Assembly: GCA_913056495.1 (NCBI GenBank)
Contig: CAJXMO010000002.1
Span: 239,347-303,346, forward strand
Direction: 5' to 3'
DNA from: an uncultured Alteromonadaceae bacterium
GTDB taxonomy: Bacteria; Pseudomonadota; Gammaproteobacteria; Enterobacterales; Alteromonadaceae
DNA: 64,000 nucleotides
In this document: positions 42,023 to 49,446 of the stretch, in pieces
Layout of the letters: each line of letters begins with the position of its first letter
Numbering within the stretch: the stretch's first letter is position 1
The notes under the pieces: generated by a model
What the model was told of the DNA's origin: nothing
What the model saw: only the letters and a program-made list of their open reading frames with translations
Database searches by the model: none
Made by a program: the position numbers and the translations under genes

Positions 42023-42970
42023 TTAAAAGTTAACCGGCAGCTCTTCAATACTAAAACGTCCTGCGCGTATATCCCGCTTGGAATCTTCAGCTATCTCTCC
42101 CAGTTTAAATAACCCTGGGCCGGTCGGCTCAGCTAGCACATAGTCTATACCGTCTAAACTAATGTATTCATCTTGCTGGCTATGTCCCAACTGCAACCCG
42201 ACTAGTGCGTGATTGGGTAAATAAACCATGACCAGGTTTAAACGAGCAAAGAGCGCCCGCATTAAGCTTATAAAGAGAGTTGATTTGCTGTCACAGTCGC
42301 CTTGGTTTTCCATTAGTAAACGATTTGGCGGACTGAATCCGGCACCATGGGATGTGACCCTATTATCTAATGTGGAGTAGGGAATACTTTGAATCCAGCT
42401 AAGGTAATAATTAATAATATCTCGGCTACTCATGTTTCTTAAATTGTCCTGAGCCTGTGCAACTATATCGTCAAATAAAGGTAAAGCTTGTTGAGCAATC
42501 CGGATATGATCCGGTTTTACATAAGCTTGGGCAAAGCGGTCAGTAAATTCTGTGTAATAATGATTGGCTAAATACTGGTTCAGTATATCTAGTCTTAATT
42601 GACTGATTTTCTGATGTATCTCGTGAAACTCGGTTGTATCTCTGGTTTTGATTTTTATCTGAACCTGTTCGCCCAGTTTATTGAGTTTTATTTGTGTATA
42701 CCTGGATTGATATTGGGGTAATTCTGCCTGCAACTTCATGTATAAATAGTGATTTGCCAATGCTGGCCGATAAGTTTTAAAGGTTCTGAAAAGCTGATGA
42801 AGGTGTTTTTTATTGACTGAAAAGCTTAAATTTTGCGGCTGGTTATTATGATCCTGCCATTGATAATTAAACTGATTTCCTGAATGATTAAAATATAGTT
42901 CAGTCGCCTGAAGCGGGATGATTGTCAGCCAAGTTAACAACAGGAAAATACTTTTCACTCGTTTTTGCAA
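42023..42970 (-). CDS. Exported transglutaminase-like/papain-fold protein
   Basis: Signal peptide; QGDCDSK (Cys), PNHA (His), AEPTG (Glu). Confidence 0.65.
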   Translation of the reverse strand: MQKRVKSIFLLLTWLTIIPLQATELYFNHSGNQFNYQWQDHNNQPQNLSFSVNKKHLHQLFRTFKTYRPALANHYLYMKLQAELPQYQSRYTQIKLNKLGEQVQIKIKTRDTTEFHEIHQKISQLRLDILNQYLANHYYTEFTDRFAQAYVKPDHIRIAQQALPLFDDIVAQAQDNLRNMSSRDIINYYLSWIQSIPYSTLDNRVTSHGAGFSPPNRLLMENQGDCDSKSTLFISLMRALFARLNLVMVYLPNHALVGLQLGHSQQDEYISLDGIDYVLAEPTGPGLFKLGEIAEDSKRDIRAGRFSIEELPVNF

Positions 42971-43156: not shown

Positions 43157-44506
43157 ATGTATAAATTAAAAAAATATTGGATTGTTTGCTGTTTTATTGG
43201 CGTTGTTAATGCTGCGTCGTTTAATAGTTATGCCTCAGATGACAGACAAAAACTCATAGAGTTGGTTGAACAACAAAATTACCCGGCAGCGTATCAGTTA
43301 GCAGAACAATTGTTTGATTTGTTAGCGGGTGATCCCGACTTTGATTATTTATATGGCTTGGCGGCTTATCATGCTGGCTATTTTCAAGAGGCTATTTTTG
43401 CATTTGAACGGACCTTATTAGTCAGGCCTGAAGATGATAATGCCAGATACGCATTGGCTCTGGTATATTTCAAAGTTGAAAATTATATTGCTGCGCGGGC
43501 TGAATTTGCTCGTTTAGAACATACCCAAGATGAATATGTACGTCAGCAAAGTTTGCAATACATGCAAGCCATCGAAGGTAATTTACAGGCTAATAACGCT
43601 CAGTTAGCAGCCAATTTAAGTGTTGGGCTAGGTTATGATTCTAATGTGAACTCGGGGTTGGGTGACGAGCTCTACCCAATACCGATTCCAAATGTCGGCT
43701 TGGTTGATTTTAAATTTCCTGAGCAATCTGCTTATCAGCAATCTTTGTCTGCCAATGTTTTGTATTTTAGACCGCTAACCAAACCTGGTGGCATTATCGC
43801 CAGTGCAGCCTTTGATAAAACCAATTACTCCGGCTCAGATAGTCTTGAAAAAGCCAATTTGGATCTGGCTGTAGGCTATATTCATAAATGGCAGAACTAT
43901 ACGGCAAAGGCGACTGTGTTTTATCAAAAGTTTTGGTTTGGCGGAGGTGTTTATCAGGACCTCTACGCTGTGCTCGGGCAAGTTAACTGGCAGTATAAAA
44001 CAAACCAAAAAATTGCGCTGAGCTCCAATTTTTCAATTACAGATAATATTGAGAACGATAACTTAGATTTACAAACAAATAGCTTTAAACTGAGTCATAG
44101 TTATCGTTTTAGTGAACATAAATTGACCACTTATGTCTCACATGGTAAAGAGTCAGTAACAGATTATAGTTTTGACTCTAAGCATTATGAAAGGTACGTA
44201 AATGCACTGGGTATTAACTGGCAAATGCTGGTTAATGACTGGGGTATATTTGAACTTGGATATCAGTACCAGTCAACCCGCCACCCTCACTTGAATGAAA
44301 CCATTGTGGGAGCTGGGGGGGAGAGTTTGTTCTTTGAGCAAAAGCGGAAAGATCATATAAACACAGTTAAATTCGGTTTTGAATATTTCATTTCAAAACA
44401 ATGGCAATGGCAAAACAGTTATCAGATAAGTAACAGAAACAGTAATCACTTATTTTATAACTTTGACAGAAGTGTATTTAGTAGCCAACTGAATTACCGC
44501 TTTTAA
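43157..44506 (+). CDS. TPR + outer-membrane beta-barrel, Slam/DUF560 (T11SS)-like
   Basis: Signal peptide; N-terminal TPR helices (YLYGLAAY...A...FER...P....RYALA); barrel begins GLGYDSNVN; terminal QLNYRF. Confidence 0.75.
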   Translation: MYKLKKYWIVCCFIGVVNAASFNSYASDDRQKLIELVEQQNYPAAYQLAEQLFDLLAGDPDFDYLYGLAAYHAGYFQEAIFAFERTLLVRPEDDNARYALALVYFKVENYIAARAEFARLEHTQDEYVRQQSLQYMQAIEGNLQANNAQLAANLSVGLGYDSNVNSGLGDELYPIPIPNVGLVDFKFPEQSAYQQSLSANVLYFRPLTKPGGIIASAAFDKTNYSGSDSLEKANLDLAVGYIHKWQNYTAKATVFYQKFWFGGGVYQDLYAVLGQVNWQYKTNQKIALSSNFSITDNIENDNLDLQTNSFKLSHSYRFSEHKLTTYVSHGKESVTDYSFDSKHYERYVNALGINWQMLVNDWGIFELGYQYQSTRHPHLNETIVGAGGESLFFEQKRKDHINTVKFGFEYFISKQWQWQNSYQISNRNSNHLFYNFDRSVFSSQLNYRF

Positions 44507-44516
44507 GAGGTAAGTT

Positions 44517-45719
44517 ATGACGTTTAAAAATTTAATGGTATCAAGCAGCTTTGCTTGCTTGTTAATTTCAACAATTGGCCTGATGGCCGCAAGTGCAAAC
44601 GCATCCGAATCTGAACTCGCAGGTAAAACAATTATTGCCAGTGGTGATGTCAATGCGTTTACACCAGAGGATAAGCGCACATTAAGTCGTCGCTCTCCAA
44701 TTTATAAGATAGATAAAGTGACTACGGCCGATGATAGTCAGGCTCAATTTAAAATGATTGACGGTGGTATTGTTGCATTACAAGCCAACACAGAATTAGA
44801 AATAGCCAGCTATCAGTATGATCAGGAAACTAACACGGGTTCCGCTGTGATGAATTTGATCTCAGGCGGATTGCGTACCATTAGTGGGAAAATTAAAAGC
44901 TACAATGGCAATTATACGCTGAATACGCCAGCAGGCAGCATTGGTGTGCGAGGAACTCATTTTGAAGTTGAGATACTGGGCGATGAGCTCTTTTTAGCTG
45001 TTTGGGACGGGGCGGTTGATTTTAAGGTGAGCCGCACCGGGAAGTTGTTTTCGTTTGGTGAAAATGAAAACTTTAACTATGCAAAAATTCAACAGACCAC
45101 AGGCGCAGTAAAAGGCTTATTGAATCCGCCAGCTGTTTTTGAAAGCGGGTATGCAGTGCCGGAAAATCAAGCTTCGAAAGTTAAAACCGGCCCGAGTAAA
45201 AACGAAACCATTTCTATTGCCGTTCAGGCTTCAAAAAAGCGTAGTCCGGTCGCTACTGAAATCCTGACGTCAGGTAAACCCACGAGCAGTGGCGTAGCTA
45301 GCGAACTTAATCCTTCAGAATTAAAAAAAGATTCAGATTTATTTGCTTTGCAAAACCCAATTGCTGAGCGAGTTGGGGTGACAAAATTTGAGTTGGTTAA
45401 TCACAACTTCACCAGCTCTATGGGAGATGTATCTGATGCGAATATGGAAATGACGGTCAATTTTGATAAGCAGCGTGTTGTTACCGGCTTTTTATCCTTT
45501 AATGATGAAGGTGGAAAATGGAGCGCTCGATTTAATGGCGCCATTAATCAGGCAAAACTTGAATTAGATGTGCTGAATGCATCTCACGGTAAAAACCGCG
45601 CTGAAGGGGAAATCAACGGAGAGTTTACCAGTGATAATCAAGCTCGCGGCAGCCTCTTTTTCAACGAGATCAAAATGCCGTCAGTTTCTGCTGGTGGGGA
45701 ATTTGAGTTAGCTGAATAA
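44517..45719 (+). CDS. FecR-domain exported protein with C-terminal beta-barrel-like domain
   Basis: Signal peptide; FecR motif (TPAGSIGVRGTHF); S/K/P-rich linker; beta-rich C-terminus (MTVNF, FNGAI, INGEF, GGEF). Confidence 0.75.
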   Translation: MTFKNLMVSSSFACLLISTIGLMAASANASESELAGKTIIASGDVNAFTPEDKRTLSRRSPIYKIDKVTTADDSQAQFKMIDGGIVALQANTELEIASYQYDQETNTGSAVMNLISGGLRTISGKIKSYNGNYTLNTPAGSIGVRGTHFEVEILGDELFLAVWDGAVDFKVSRTGKLFSFGENENFNYAKIQQTTGAVKGLLNPPAVFESGYAVPENQASKVKTGPSKNETISIAVQASKKRSPVATEILTSGKPTSSGVASELNPSELKKDSDLFALQNPIAERVGVTKFELVNHNFTSSMGDVSDANMEMTVNFDKQRVVTGFLSFNDEGGKWSARFNGAINQAKLELDVLNASHGKNRAEGEINGEFTSDNQARGSLFFNEIKMPSVSAGGEFELAE

Positions 45720-45731
45720 AGTTGAAGTTGA

Positions 45732-45772
45732 TACCGCCAGGCTTTTGTATTGTGAGCAAAAGCCTGGCGGTA
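45732..45772. repeat. 16-bp perfect inverted repeat without U-tract
   Basis: TACCGCCAGGCTTTTG-9nt-CAAAAGCCTGGCGGTA. Confidence 0.8.
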
Positions 45773-45900
45773 ATTAAGTACTTTTATTCAGACAATATAA
45801 AATAATGCTTTTGTGATAACCTGCTCAACTTAGCCAGCCGCCAGTGAATATTTAATTAATGGCAACTAAAATAATAAAAACGGCAACTTAAGGTTAGAGA

Positions 45901-46746
45901 ATGCAAGTTACTTTTTATGGGGTCAGAGGGTCTTTACCTGCAGTTGGTTCTGAATTTATCAAGTATGGCGGCAATACTGCATGTGTTCATGTTGTATTGA
46001 GTGACGGCACAGACTTGATACTCGATGCCGGTACCGGAATTGTAAAACTGGGCGAACAACTACAACAAAGTGTCCGCCCCATTCATTTATTGCTGACACA
46101 TAATCACTGGGATCATATTCAAGGCTTTCCGTTTTTTCGACCGGCTTACCAAGCCGGCCGGGATATTCATATCACACCGGGATTAACAGAACCCAAACAC
46201 GATATTGCGATATTAAAACAGATGTCCGATACCTGGTTTCCTATCGGACACGATCAATTAAAAGCGAATATCGAATTTACGCAGCTGAATGAGCTGCATC
46301 AGTGGCAGCTCGGCAGCGCTAGCATTAAACGAGTTCAAATTAACCATCCTGGTGGCGGCAGTGCTTACCTGATAGAAGATGCGGGTGTTAAACTGGCTTA
46401 TATCACAGATAATGAACTCGATCCGCCATATAAAAAAGCAACCAGTTATACACAGTGGCTGGCGTTTTTGGATTCTGTAGATTTACTGATCCATGATGCT
46501 CAGTATGCCGAACAGGATATGCCACTTAAACATGGTTGGGGGCACAGCCTTATTCAGCAAACCGTTGATTTAGCCTGTCAGGCGAAAGTGAAACAATGTG
46601 CTTTGTTCAGCCATGATTTTGGTCGGACTGATCAGCAAATTGATCTTCAAATGGAAAAAATTGCTCTGTACCTGCAAGAAAAACAATTGAATATTGACAT
46701 TTTTGCTGCTGCCGAGGGCATGTCGCTGGACTTGGAAGCTCAATAA
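45901..46746 (+). CDS. MBL-fold metallohydrolase (putative cyclic-nucleotide phosphodiesterase)
   Basis: GVRGS, YGGNT, LDAGTG, THNHWDH, NHPGG, HDAQY, GHS. Confidence 0.8.
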   Translation: MQVTFYGVRGSLPAVGSEFIKYGGNTACVHVVLSDGTDLILDAGTGIVKLGEQLQQSVRPIHLLLTHNHWDHIQGFPFFRPAYQAGRDIHITPGLTEPKHDIAILKQMSDTWFPIGHDQLKANIEFTQLNELHQWQLGSASIKRVQINHPGGGSAYLIEDAGVKLAYITDNELDPPYKKATSYTQWLAFLDSVDLLIHDAQYAEQDMPLKHGWGHSLIQQTVDLACQAKVKQCALFSHDFGRTDQQIDLQMEKIALYLQEKQLNIDIFAAAEGMSLDLEAQ

Positions 46747-46813
46747 CCAAATCACGGGATATAAGTCATGACGCTAAAAAATGAATAGCAGCCAAATCAA
46801 ATGGACCTAAAGC

Positions 46814-49042
46814 ATGACCCTAAAAAAATTCACTGTCATTTTGGGCTTAATATTAACGGCTCTGATTATTGCTTGGCAATTGGCACCCAATGGCTCAAGC
46901 GCCAGAATTTCACTCAATAAAATCGAGGGCATATTGTATGATGCCCGCCTCAATTTATTCAGAGAACCATTTACACAAGCTGCTGATCTGCAAGCTCCAA
47001 ATAAAATTGTCATTATTGATATCGACGAAAAATCGATAAAAGAGCAAGGCCGTTTTCCCTGGAGTCGGGCCGTAATGGCTAAGCTAGTTGACGGTTTATT
47101 CGAAGCAAACGTTGCGGTTGTTGCATTTGATATTATGTTTAGCGAGTCTCAGGTTAATCCGGTTGATACGCTGCTAACCGCCCCGGATTTAACCGATCAA
47201 ACCAAAAAACAGTTATTGGCTCTGAAATCTGAATTTGATGCGGATAAACAGTTTGCCCAAAGTTTGTCCCGCGGAGATGTGGTTCTGGCCATGTTATTAG
47301 ATAATCAAACTGCATCAGAACCTTATTCTGTCTTATCGTCCAACTCAGTTCGTAGTTCCGTACAGTTGGAACAAGGTATTGCAGCTGAAACAACAACTGC
47401 GATTCATAAACCGGTTATCCGCGCGGCTATTGATAAACTAAATTTAAATCCGGATGAAACTTTATTTGCCCTGAATCAGGGGTTTATTAATTCAATGCCG
47501 GATGATGATGGCTCAATTCGAAAGGCTGCTTTGTTACTCAGACATCAGGGGACTTTATATCCTTCACTGGCGCTTGAAGCCGTTCGCAGTTATTCATTTG
47601 AACCTGTCATTCAGGTTGAAACTCGGCCAGCCGGAGATTTTGATTATATCAACGCAATCTGGCTTAACCAGAAGAAAGTGCCGACAGATGCACATGGCCG
47701 GATTTGGGTGCCCTATCAGGGTAAACAGGCCAGTTTTCCTTATATATCAGCAACGGATGTGATAACCGGTCGGGCTAACTCCGAACGACTCGCCGGATCG
47801 ATTGCTTTTGTTGGCACATCGGCAGCTGGATTAGCCGATTTAATAGAGGCGCCGGTTGGCATGCAGTATCCGGGCGTTGAAGTACACGCAAATGTGGCTT
47901 ATGGCTTGCTCAACCCTGAAATATTGCTGGTTGAACCCGATTCGAGTGATGCTATGGTTGCGCTGTTTTTATTATCTATTGGTTTAGTCCTGAGTTTATT
48001 TTTGGTTAAGTTTGAACCGGTTAATATGCTTTTGGTTGGGGTTGTAACCCTGATTGCCAGTATTTCGATTAACCTGATTCTCTGGCGCTATTATGCCTGG
48101 GTATTGCCGCTGACGTCGTCTGTACTTTTGGTTTTCAGTGTCAGTTTAATCAATATTGTTAGCGGTTATCTCAGAGAAAGTTTTCAGAAAAATAAAATCA
48201 AAACCTATTTTGAGCAATATGTACCGGCGGCTCATATCGATAAAATGCTTGCGGCACCAGAACAGGTGAGTCTGGCGGGAGAGCGTAAACAAATGACGGT
48301 CTTATTTGCCGATATTCGTGATTTTACCCATATCTCGGAACAGCTCAGTGCAAATCAGGTCAAATTGCTGCTCAATGCTTATTTATCTCCAATCACAAAA
48401 GTGATTTTAGAGAACCATGGCACGATTGATAAATATGTCGGCGATATGGTGATGGCGTTTTGGGGCGCGCCACTCAATGATGATGAACACGCCGAACACG
48501 CGGTAAAAGCCGCGTTAGCTATGTTAGACAAAGCCAAACAATTGAATCTTGAGTTTGCCAAAAAAGGCTGGCCTGAAATTAAACTGGGCATTGGCATTAA
48601 TACAGGTGAAATGAATGTCGGCGATATGGGCTCTGAATTTAGGCGCGCCTATACTGTCATTGGCGATTCAGTTAATCTGGCCAGTCGACTGGAAAGTCTG
48701 ACCAAATATTACGGAGTTGATATTTTGATCAGTGAACAGACTTATTATGATGCACATGCGTTTGATCACTATCTGATTGATAAGGTAAAAGTGAAAGGCA
48801 AGCAAAAAGCAATCGAAGTCTATCAGCCAAACCGGCCTTTATCCAAACCGAATCAGGTTTTACATCACCGAGCCTATCAGGCTTATTTTGCGCAGGACTG
48901 GCAAACCGCAACCGCTCTGTTCACTCAGTTACACCAAAATACACAAGATAACCTGTATGCGGTTTTTATCGAGCGTATTCAGCAGTTATCTTCGCAGAAT
49001 TTAAACGAATGGGACGGTAGTTATACGCATCAGACTAAATAA
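46814..49042 (+). CDS. CHASE2-domain class III adenylate cyclase
   Basis: TM-CHASE2-3TM; FADIRDF, DKYVGD (Lys, ATP-specific), [15 protein letters not shown]. Confidence 0.92.
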
Positions 49043-49095: not shown

Positions 49096-49446
49096 ATGAC
49101 AATTGAAAGAATAGAAACCGGGGCTCGTATGAGTCGTATTGTTAAACATCAGGGCACCATTTATTTGTGCGGCCAGGTATGCGCAGATGCCACTCAGGGC
49201 ATCACTGAGCAAACTCAAACTATGCTGGATAAGGTTGAAGCTTTGCTCGAAAAAGCAGGCAGTGATAAAAACCATATGCTGTCAGCCACTATTTATATTA
49301 AAGATATGGCTGATTTTGCTGCTATGAATGCTGTCTGGGATGCTTGGGTACCGCAAGGGCATGCGCCAGCCAGAGCCTGCGTTCAAGCTGCAATGGCTCG
49401 CGAAGCCTTATTGGTCGAAATTTCTGTAGTGGCCGCAGAAAAGTAA
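49096..49446 (+). CDS. RidA/YjgF family protein (YoaB-like)
   Basis: [16 protein letters not shown]. Confidence 0.9.

Follow-up and report, generated by a model that had tools for sequence, protein, structure and literature searches.

A type 11 secretion-family protein pair encoded beside a CHASE2 adenylate cyclase: a candidate envelope-spanning cAMP signalling module in marine Alteromonadales

A stretch of 64,000 nucleotides (nt) from an uncultured Alteromonadaceae bacterium, here called the window, carries at positions 43157-49042, entirely on the + strand, a four-gene locus that combines two known kinds of system: a type 11 secretion system (T11SS) and FecR/CHASE2 cyclase signalling. The combination is widespread in marine Alteromonadales. 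The locus encodes an outer-membrane protein (OMP) assigned to the Slam family, an exported FecR-domain protein with a predicted C-terminal TbpB-type barrel, a hydrolase of the metallo-beta-lactamase (MBL) fold and an inner-membrane CHASE2 adenylate cyclase. Conservation of gene order makes it very likely that the OMP, the FecR protein and the cyclase constitute one functional module. With a confidence that stops a little short of even, we further propose that the locus is an envelope-spanning cyclic AMP (cAMP) signalling module, a split counterpart of the Sinorhizobium NsrA-CyaK system built with type-11-secretion parts. The features of the locus are as follows.

43157-44506 (+): outer-membrane protein assigned to the Slam/T11SS family (OMP), 449 amino acids (aa)
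44517-45719 (+): exported FecR-domain protein, 400 aa
45728-45777 (+): strong hairpin in the predicted RNA fold, candidate terminator or attenuator
45901-46746 (+): MBL-fold metallo-hydrolase, 281 aa
46814-49042 (+): predicted inner-membrane CHASE2 class IIIb adenylate cyclase, 742 aa

The four open reading frames (ORFs) are codirectional and separated by intergenic gaps of 10, 181 and 67 nt; base composition across the region is unremarkable, and the same gene order is found in Catenovulum sp. 2E275 (locus L005), which marks the source organism as an Alteromonadales relative of Catenovulum. An earlier note, made from the sequence of the window without database searches, had described the four codirectional genes and quoted motifs from them, and the ORFs, their Pfam families and the motifs THNHWDH and DKYVGD were all confirmed.

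The OMP begins with a signal-peptide-like sequence, ends in ...NYRF and is laid out as a periplasmic tetratricopeptide repeat (TPR) domain (approximately aa 30-145, nt 43244-43591) followed by a 14-stranded beta-barrel (aa 149-449, nt 43601-44503). The AlphaFold2 (AF2) model, with a mean predicted local distance difference test score (pLDDT) of 91, consists of helices at residues 22-145 and 14 long strands at 149-448, plus one short hairpin in the first loop. Compared with Pfam, the protein matches TPR families and, weakly at its C-terminus, OMP_b-brl, and the only Slam-related family that it hits by itself is TPR_Slam (E = 0.014). Its relatives are more informative: 116 homologues were found, many of them carrying the DUF560/SlipAM domain (PF04575), and several at ~40% identity bear the NCBI name 'surface lipoprotein assembly modifier'. 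SlipAM is matched by 38 of the 58 aligned family members and TPR_Slam by 30. The closest bridge runs through homologue P0006, which aligns with the window OMP over 98% of its length (41% identity, E = 3e-100) and scores 38.2 bits against SlipAM (gathering score 22) over model positions 1-281 of 288; homologues P0007, P0011, P0012 and P0015 also pass the SlipAM threshold. Foldseek searches with the model retrieved the TPR-plus-barrel exporters BcsC and PelB as well as the 14-stranded proteins OmpG, CymA and FadL, and the best matches to the barrel taken by itself were likewise 14-stranded (OmpG with TM scores of 0.68-0.70, CymA and FadL). Searches of PDB sequences, both with the single sequence and with a profile, brought up TPR proteins and OmpX and nothing else; PDB contains no Slam structure with which the fold could be compared. 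On the strength of transitive homology and model architecture we accept the OMP as a member of the DUF560/SlipAM (Slam, T11SS) family, in agreement with the Slam-like character given to it in the earlier note, and by analogy with that family it would translocate cargo across the outer membrane.

The FecR gene, which starts 10 nt past the stop codon of the OMP gene, encodes a protein with the layout of such a cargo. It possesses a signal peptide of the SPI type (aa 1-29, ending ...ANA before SE) and no canonical lipobox, a FecR-fold beta domain (aa 34-201, nt 44616-45119; Pfam FecR at residues 66-167, E = 4e-15), a disordered linker (approximately aa 202-287, nt 45120-45377) and a C-terminal barrel of eight strands (aa 288-400, nt 45378-45716). 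The AF2 model has a pLDDT of 83 overall, with values above 90 in both domains (94-98 in the barrel) and below 50 in the linker. In Foldseek comparisons the all-beta N-terminal domain resembled the signalling domain that the anti-sigma regulator PupR has in the periplasm (6ovk, E = 1.6e-6), and the C-terminal domain matched fHbp, TbpB (including its C-lobe), NHBA-C (TM score 0.65) and HpuA. The proteins fHbp, TbpB, NHBA and HpuA are classic Slam-dependent proteins. Sequence searches of PDB with the FecR protein, single and profile, found nothing, but the aligned homologues P0161 and P0162 exceed the gathering score of TbpB_B_D (PF01298). Together with the AF2 barrel and its structural matches, this supports the candidate cargo role given to the FecR protein in the earlier note.

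Across orthologues the barrel proved to be a nearly invariant part of the protein, being present at full length in 80 of the 81 and always at the extreme C-terminus, and the linker ranges from 59 to 219 residues (median 78.5; 79 in the window). A library-wide search with the barrel only returned 67 representative clusters, nearly all of them proteins of 390-600 aa matched at the C-terminus, in keeping with the FecR-barrel family itself in both size and layout. Two metagenomic homologues, P0123 and P0126, look shortened in the alignment, as is the protein of Catenovulum sp. 2E275 considered below. A signal peptide, an N-terminal domain, a disordered linker and a C-terminal TbpB/fHbp-type barrel together form the layout of a soluble T11SS cargo; the soluble, SPI-type version with a single barrel has been described for T11SS-1B (PMC8406197).

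The last gene encodes the cyclase (Pfam CHASE2, E = 4e-54; Guanylate_cyc, E = 3e-24). Its hydrophobic segments, one at aa 5-27 and three more at approximately aa 377-454, would place the CHASE2 domain (aa 25-391, nt 46886-47986) in the periplasm and the catalytic domain (aa 491-667, nt 48284-48814) in the cytoplasm. Its best solved relative is Pseudomonas aeruginosa CyaB (3r5g, E = 5e-33), and the segments FADIRDF, DKYVGD, YTVIGD and VNLASR align in register with CyaB 3r5g and CyaC 1wc0, bringing into line the two metal-binding Asp residues, the Lys of DKYVGD, the Thr of YTVIGD and the Asn and Arg of VNLASR. The two specificity positions are occupied by Glu and Gly in chain 2w01, which we take to be the guanylate cyclase Cya2 (the molecule name in the record is 'ADENYLATE CYCLASE'), and by Lys and Gly, respectively, in the red-light-regulated guanylate/adenylate cyclase 6fht. 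The alignment thus gives good support to an ATP-specific class IIIb enzyme, and it bears out the ATP-specific residues pointed out in the earlier note, the Lys of DKYVGD among them. For the Sinorhizobium cyclase CyaD1, a construct without CHASE2 produced cAMP constitutively (PMC5498481), which points to an inhibitory role of the domain.

To see how far the genes travel together, one genome per species was scanned with the FecR alignment, which yielded 190 loci, 80 of which were kept; the counts below refer to these 80. They belong mostly to Alteromonadales (Catenovulum, Pseudoalteromonas, Alteromonas, Paraglaciecola, Colwellia, Thalassotalea and Psychrosphaera), with a few from Rheinheimera and from unclassified metagenome-assembled genomes. 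The OMP gene lies directly upstream of the FecR gene, on the same strand, in 79 loci, the 80th being cut by a contig end. Downstream, at a distance of up to 10 kb, 67 loci have an orthologous CHASE2 cyclase gene, 66 of them with it on the same strand; in most of the others the flank is cut or a very long gene intervenes. In 47 loci the cyclase gene is directly preceded by the MBL gene, often with a 4-nt overlap, and in 70 a very large ORF (750-3300 aa) is inserted between the FecR gene and the MBL or cyclase gene. The association of OMP, FecR protein and cyclase is far above chance.

The same association reappears at a distance. In Thiohalobacter the genes for an OMP and for a FecR protein that shares the barrel (E = 9e-12) stand next to a convergent CHASE2 cyclase gene. 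A Shinella plasmid (L082) carries genes for an OMP (family profile, E = 9e-26), a FecR protein that matches FHBP_C weakly (E = 0.002; at 19.4 bits, short of the gathering score) and a CHASE2 cyclase, and on an Ensifer plasmid (L083) TPR and FecR genes accompany a CHASE2 cyclase gene, which is followed by an MBL orthologue (E = 7e-49). Two further distant OMP loci are free of a cyclase gene. From the 80-locus counts and the Thiohalobacter, Shinella and Ensifer loci, we therefore conclude that the stable core is the OMP, the FecR-barrel protein and the CHASE2 cyclase, and that the MBL enzyme and the giant lipoprotein encoded by the large ORF are frequent accessories. The proposal that all four genes of the window form one unit consequently holds for the three that are conserved together; the MBL gene is present in little more than half of the loci, the hairpin may split the genes into separate transcripts, and a fifth, giant gene is common. 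The two computational results that would have spoken against the earlier note, a barrel modelled as something other than Slam and a lack of joint conservation, were not encountered.

Such linkage across ~80 Alteromonadales loci, Thiohalobacter and plasmids of Rhizobiaceae also makes it highly improbable that the genes are neighbours without a common function, or that the cyclase belongs to an anti-phage system of the Pycsar type. The hairpin between the two gene pairs would suit unrelated neighbours, and the cyclase domain matches PADLOC models of PycC (best E = 2e-31), but such a match is common to class III cyclases in general, and this one bears a CHASE2 sensor, four membrane spans and adenylate-type residues. 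Pycsar defence was rejected as a reading of the locus, as the PycC match covers the generic catalytic domain only and no effector gene is adjacent.

The giant protein carries a lipobox in 48 loci and is composed of Big_9/cadherin-like repeats, a beta-propeller and a conserved N-terminal module resembling Ig and FN3 domains; it is found among loci L006-L080 (for example L009:11203-14664, L008:11219-16891 and L069:11166-13751). It is missing from the corresponding interval of the window (45720-45900) and from the Catenovulum/Gayadomonas clade, and tblastn revealed no copy elsewhere in the window; the clade of the window has lost this part. Where it is present, its adhesin-like build suggests that contact or particle sensing may be the input.

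The MBL enzyme, the other accessory, matches Lactamase_B_2 in Pfam (E = 6e-14) and contains the motif THNHWDH, of the form HxHxDH. All metal ligands are kept, with H67, H69, D71, H72, H149, D170, H215 and H238 invariant across 21 orthologues. A profile search of PDB gave BA1088, RNase Z, ElaC1 and PhnP as the nearest solved relatives, and the NCBIfam scan also points to RNase Z and PhnP; by these similarities the protein is an MBL-fold enzyme of the RNase Z/ElaC/PhnP phosphodiesterase branch. Its match to NF041851, 'cyclic nucleotide-degrading phosphodiesterase', is near-global and weak (E = 5e-6, 26 bits against a cut-off of 400), PF02112 (class II phosphodiesterases) was not matched, and the protein thus falls outside the families of cyclic nucleoside monophosphate (cNMP)-hydrolysing enzymes that were searched. 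Database names are confined to 'MBL fold metallo-hydrolase' and 'phosphoribosyl 1,2-cyclic phosphodiesterase', and there is a precomputed match to PF23023. The designation 'phosphodiesterase' in the earlier note accordingly stands for the fold, the branch and the HxHxDH motif, but finds no cNMP phosphodiesterase family behind it and concerns an accessory enzyme. A nucleotide substrate is nevertheless suggested by the position of the gene beside that of the cyclase in two proteobacterial classes, and from this gene context a cyclic-nucleotide phosphodiesterase is a plausible candidate function. Orthologues of the MBL protein also occur in genera whose sampled locus is MBL-free, such as Aestuariibacter and Bowmanella, and two Psychrosphaera loci (L021 and L051) have a pair of MBL paralogues, of which one lies upstream of the OMP gene and the other downstream of the giant gene. 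In Sinorhizobium, the spdA gene presumably lies in the cyaD1 region. Caution comes from SpdA, a different phosphodiesterase studied with the Sinorhizobium CyaD1/CyaD2/CyaK cAMP pathway, which proved to be a 2',3'-cNMP phosphodiesterase (PMC4222275).

The closest studied system, also mentioned in the earlier note, is that of NsrA, an OMP required for CyaK signalling in Sinorhizobium meliloti (PMC7529298; NsrA-CyaK is also cited in PMC13001267 and PMC9239204), whose barrel portion is given as residues 600-1200 in a supplement legend of PMC7529298. Walking from the cyclase gene on S. meliloti pSymB, we located an ORF (L084:2217-5876) of 1219 aa, the stop codon of which overlaps the start of a CHASE2 cyclase gene, and which encodes a signal peptide, a FecR domain (85-179), a TPR region (397-606) and a long C-terminal barrel ending in ...VKVRF. 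Because its size, barrel range and overlap with the cyclase gene fit NsrA, this ORF probably is NsrA. In that strain a gene for an IS110-family transposase lies just downstream of the cyclase gene.

Both systems encode an OMP with periplasmic FecR and TPR modules beside an inner-membrane CHASE2 class III adenylate cyclase. They differ in that NsrA unites these modules in a single chain of ~1200 aa, whereas in the window they are split over two proteins, and in that the window FecR protein has its own 8-stranded TbpB-type barrel, which NsrA lacks. The profile of the window OMP matches the TPR region of NsrA only and shows no detectable similarity to its barrel; tblastn of the window OMP against the plasmids gave nothing, and tblastn of the Shinella OMP gave no match on pSymB. 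By sequence, then, the window locus is an analogue of NsrA-CyaK with shared FecR, TPR and CHASE2 modules and not an orthologue, and the comparison with NsrA made in the earlier note needs amending insofar as NsrA is a FecR-TPR-barrel fusion, which makes it a nearer analogue than that note supposed, with a barrel not detectably related to the Slam-like one.

The NsrA comparison raises the alternative that the OMP is a receptor or scaffold: its loops would sense the outside, its TPR domain would hold the FecR protein with the small barrel acting as a TPR-binding handle, and nothing would cross the membrane. NsrA indeed joins FecR, TPR and barrel in one chain and acts as a signal receptor for CyaK, the fusion of FecR with TPR suggests that the two are periplasmic partners, and T11SS OMPs outside cluster 1 are without demonstrated translocation (PMC12282271). 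We nonetheless think this arrangement improbable, given that T11SS cargo is defined by the very barrel type that the FecR protein carries, intact at the C-terminal extreme in all orthologues but one, and that the barrel of the OMP is of the SlipAM family, its profile matching the TPR region of NsrA and not the NsrA barrel.

From the side of secretion, the nearest counterparts are the soluble single-barrel T11SS cargos (HrpB-HrpC, hemophilin; PMC8406197, PMC12282271), in which likewise a TPR-containing DUF560-family OMP adjoins a Sec-exported protein with an N-terminal functional domain and a C-terminal 8-stranded barrel as secretion handle. Known cargos bind haem, metals or host factors or act as adhesins, whereas that of the window is distinguished by a FecR signalling fold and by its link with a cAMP cyclase. 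FecR, cyclase and CHASE all go unmentioned in the main text of the T11SS cargo survey, FecR appears in the hemophilin study only as a neighbouring regulator, and no mention of a T11SS link of such cAMP loci was found in the literature searched. A related gene set has been reported for free-living Campylobacterota, where a cluster comprises a CHASE2 cyclase, a phosphodiesterase and a FecR 'outer membrane protein', together with a TPR protein (PMC9239204, mBio 2022); in the model by which the same paper summarises the work on NsrA, a transmembrane cyclase is inhibited by modules of the ECF type. That cluster is a bioinformatic note that comes with no T11SS reading, structures or experiments, and we liken it to the window locus by description only. 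The earlier note knew of no characterised unit of this kind in marine gammaproteobacteria, but the four-gene cluster had already been noted in Campylobacterota.

Two further comparisons concern the FecR fold. As in FecA-FecR-FecI and PupB-PupR, the FecR fold of the window protein would connect a protein of the outer membrane with a partner in the inner membrane and relay a signal inwards between them. Unlike PupR and FecR, the protein has a cleavable signal peptide and neither a cytoplasmic anti-sigma domain nor a membrane anchor, and a cyclase would take the place of the sigma factor as its output. Between 39.6 and 51.6 kb no ORF resembles an extracytoplasmic function (ECF) sigma factor or a transducer of the TonB-dependent kind, as judged for the flanking ORFs by eye from their translations. 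A FecIRA-type anti-sigma system was therefore rejected for want of an anchor, a sigma factor and a transducer, the periplasmic FecR fold being all that is common. The second comparison is with the Burkholderia BiofilmReg operon and pairs of the P. aeruginosa PA4035-36 type (PMC5192318), in which a LysM-FecR protein is paired with a CHASE2 histidine kinase: here too an exported FecR-domain protein is encoded beside a CHASE2 membrane sensor, with the differences that the output is a histidine kinase, that LysM provides anchoring to peptidoglycan in place of an OMP association, and that a barrel domain is absent. The S. meliloti cyaD1 gene also adjoins a FecR-domain gene.

A hairpin separates the two gene pairs of the window. 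It lies 7-15 nt past the FecR stop codon, contains a perfect 15-bp core stem (45733-45771) and folds with -33.8 kcal/mol (z = -6.4; 0 of 200 shuffles as stable). It is followed by a displaced U-rich stretch, and because of the displacement of the T-run a simple terminator scan did not list it. A hairpin with a U-run occupies the same place in L005 and L007, and none is seen in loci with gaps of 28-30 nt. The structure may be an intrinsic terminator or an attenuator, so that the four genes possibly form two transcripts, OMP-FecR and MBL-cyclase, or a single attenuated one. In the same interval, at 45812-45827 and 89 nt before the MBL start, lies a CRP-like sequence, TGTGATAACCTGCTCA, with 2 mismatches to TGTGA-N6-TCACA; sites of equal quality number 16 in the 64-kb window, which makes the hint at cAMP feedback weak.

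We tentatively propose the following mechanism, at odds somewhat lower than those of the envelope-spanning module as such. The OMP would recognise the C-terminal barrel of the FecR protein and either hold it at the outer membrane or pass it through. The N-terminal FecR domain, connected by the disordered linker of ~80 residues, would remain in the periplasm and act on the CHASE2 domain of the adenylate cyclase; if extended, such a linker could span ~25 nm (at ~0.35 nm per residue), enough for the FecR domain to reach CHASE2. What happens at the outer membrane or cell surface, for instance ligand binding or a change in the engagement or export state of the barrel, would change the contact between FecR and CHASE2 and so alter cAMP synthesis, most likely by relieving an inhibition exerted through CHASE2. 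Where present, the MBL enzyme would probably degrade the nucleotide and reset the signal. While the domain identities, the predicted folds, the adenylate-type residues and the gene linkage are results of the analysis, translocation by the OMP, the periplasmic site of the FecR domain, its contact with CHASE2, the direction of regulation and the substrate of the MBL enzyme are all inferred. We favour a relay of this kind because the NsrA fusion locates both FecR and TPR to the periplasmic face of an OMP, and because the OMP-free FecR-CHASE2 pairs put the relation between FecR and CHASE2 in the periplasm. The most far-reaching form, in which a T11SS pair has been recruited for signal transduction, with the barrel engaged or exposed by the OMP, the linker spanning the envelope and the periplasmic FecR domain gating the cyclase, we regard as doubtful.

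Ordinary T11SS secretion offers another account. The FecR-barrel protein would be exported whole, like hemophilin or HrpC, and serve as a binding protein outside the cell, with the cyclase linked to it indirectly: the cyclase might sense the periplasmic remainder of the cargo, or the secretion genes might be under the control of cAMP. Soluble T11SS cargo, a kind of protein that is released in one piece (PMC8406197), has exactly this layout and an adjacent DUF560-family OMP, and the terminator-like hairpin between the gene pairs, the existence of cyclase-free OMP-FecR loci and, weakly, the CRP-like site upstream of the MBL gene all fit this account. Against it speaks the nature of the FecR fold, which wherever studied is a periplasmic protein-contact module (PupR) and which in NsrA is situated on the periplasmic side. 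The pairing of FecR with CHASE2 moreover recurs in systems free of an OMP, and the cyclase gene is linked in 67 of the 80 loci and in distant lineages. We thus judge secretion of the whole protein rather unlikely.

Several observations count against a relay through a tethered FecR protein and against the assignments on which it is built. The window OMP does not match SlipAM, even when the domain is cut out, and the C-terminal domain of the window FecR protein, also when cut out, matches neither TbpB_B_D nor FHBP_C; because the window sequences miss these families, both assignments rest on homologues and predicted structures. Known T11SS cargo crosses the membrane whole, and we know of no precedent for a cargo that stays half-way. 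The one orthologue with an eroded barrel, that of Catenovulum sp. 2E275 (L005:5209-6246), which is among the nearest named relatives, is 345 aa long and covers positions 15-67 only of the barrel profile, next to an intact OMP gene. Loci L021, L051 and L087 have the OMP-FecR pair with no cyclase gene nearby, and in L021 and L051 no CHASE2 cyclase was found within 10 kb. A strong hairpin parts the OMP-FecR genes from the MBL-cyclase genes, and the giant adhesin-like lipoprotein of most relatives has a role that the proposed relay leaves unexplained. Finally, the sequence was found in a single sequencing run, of DNA from a marine metagenome, and in no RNA run.

The surroundings of the locus resemble housekeeping genes, pth and ychF upstream and ridA, tesB and nudix downstream; among the flanking products, those of 42023-42970 and ridA were scanned against family libraries and the rest were named from their translations by eye. 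The former, on the - strand and thus divergent from the locus, encodes a secreted protein of 315 aa with a weak match to a transglutaminase core (E = 0.004), whose position beside the OMP gene is kept in the Catenovulum clade and Algibacillus (L001-L007 and L067) and nowhere else. A gene of the RidA family (49096-49446) starts 53 nt past the cyclase stop codon. Among the other surveyed loci it was detected beside the cyclase gene in L005 only, and it therefore probably does not belong to the module. On the Shinella and Ensifer plasmids, the FecR and CHASE2-cyclase genes adjoin an NHLP-type bacteriocin export system of the ATP-binding cassette (ABC) class and a gene for a small cyclic-nucleotide-binding protein, joined in Ensifer by one for a Nif11-like leader peptide precursor, which suggests cAMP control of peptide export in these two loci.

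The function of the module is put forward as a well-founded hypothesis and not as a discovery, but the locus matters in several respects. It provides a clear pair of OMP and cargo in ~190 loci (one genome per species), at a time when T11SS outside animal-associated bacteria is little understood and the only marine T11SS survey, in Rhodobacterales, reported little recognisable cargo (PMC12282271). The FecR-CHASE2 pairing recurs in fused (NsrA), split (the window locus) and OMP-free (Burkholderia) forms, which points to a protein partner of CHASE2, and the input to this domain, an open question since the domain was defined, becomes testable in tractable hosts such as Pseudoalteromonas. If the relay by a partly translocated FecR protein is correct, it would represent the first signalling T11SS cargo and the first T11SS client to be translocated in part, and would give direct evidence that proteins, not small ligands, are the partners of CHASE2 domains. 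For the marine Alteromonadales themselves, the giant cadherin-like lipoprotein of most relatives hints that sensing of surfaces or particles may be transmitted to cAMP in these particle colonisers.

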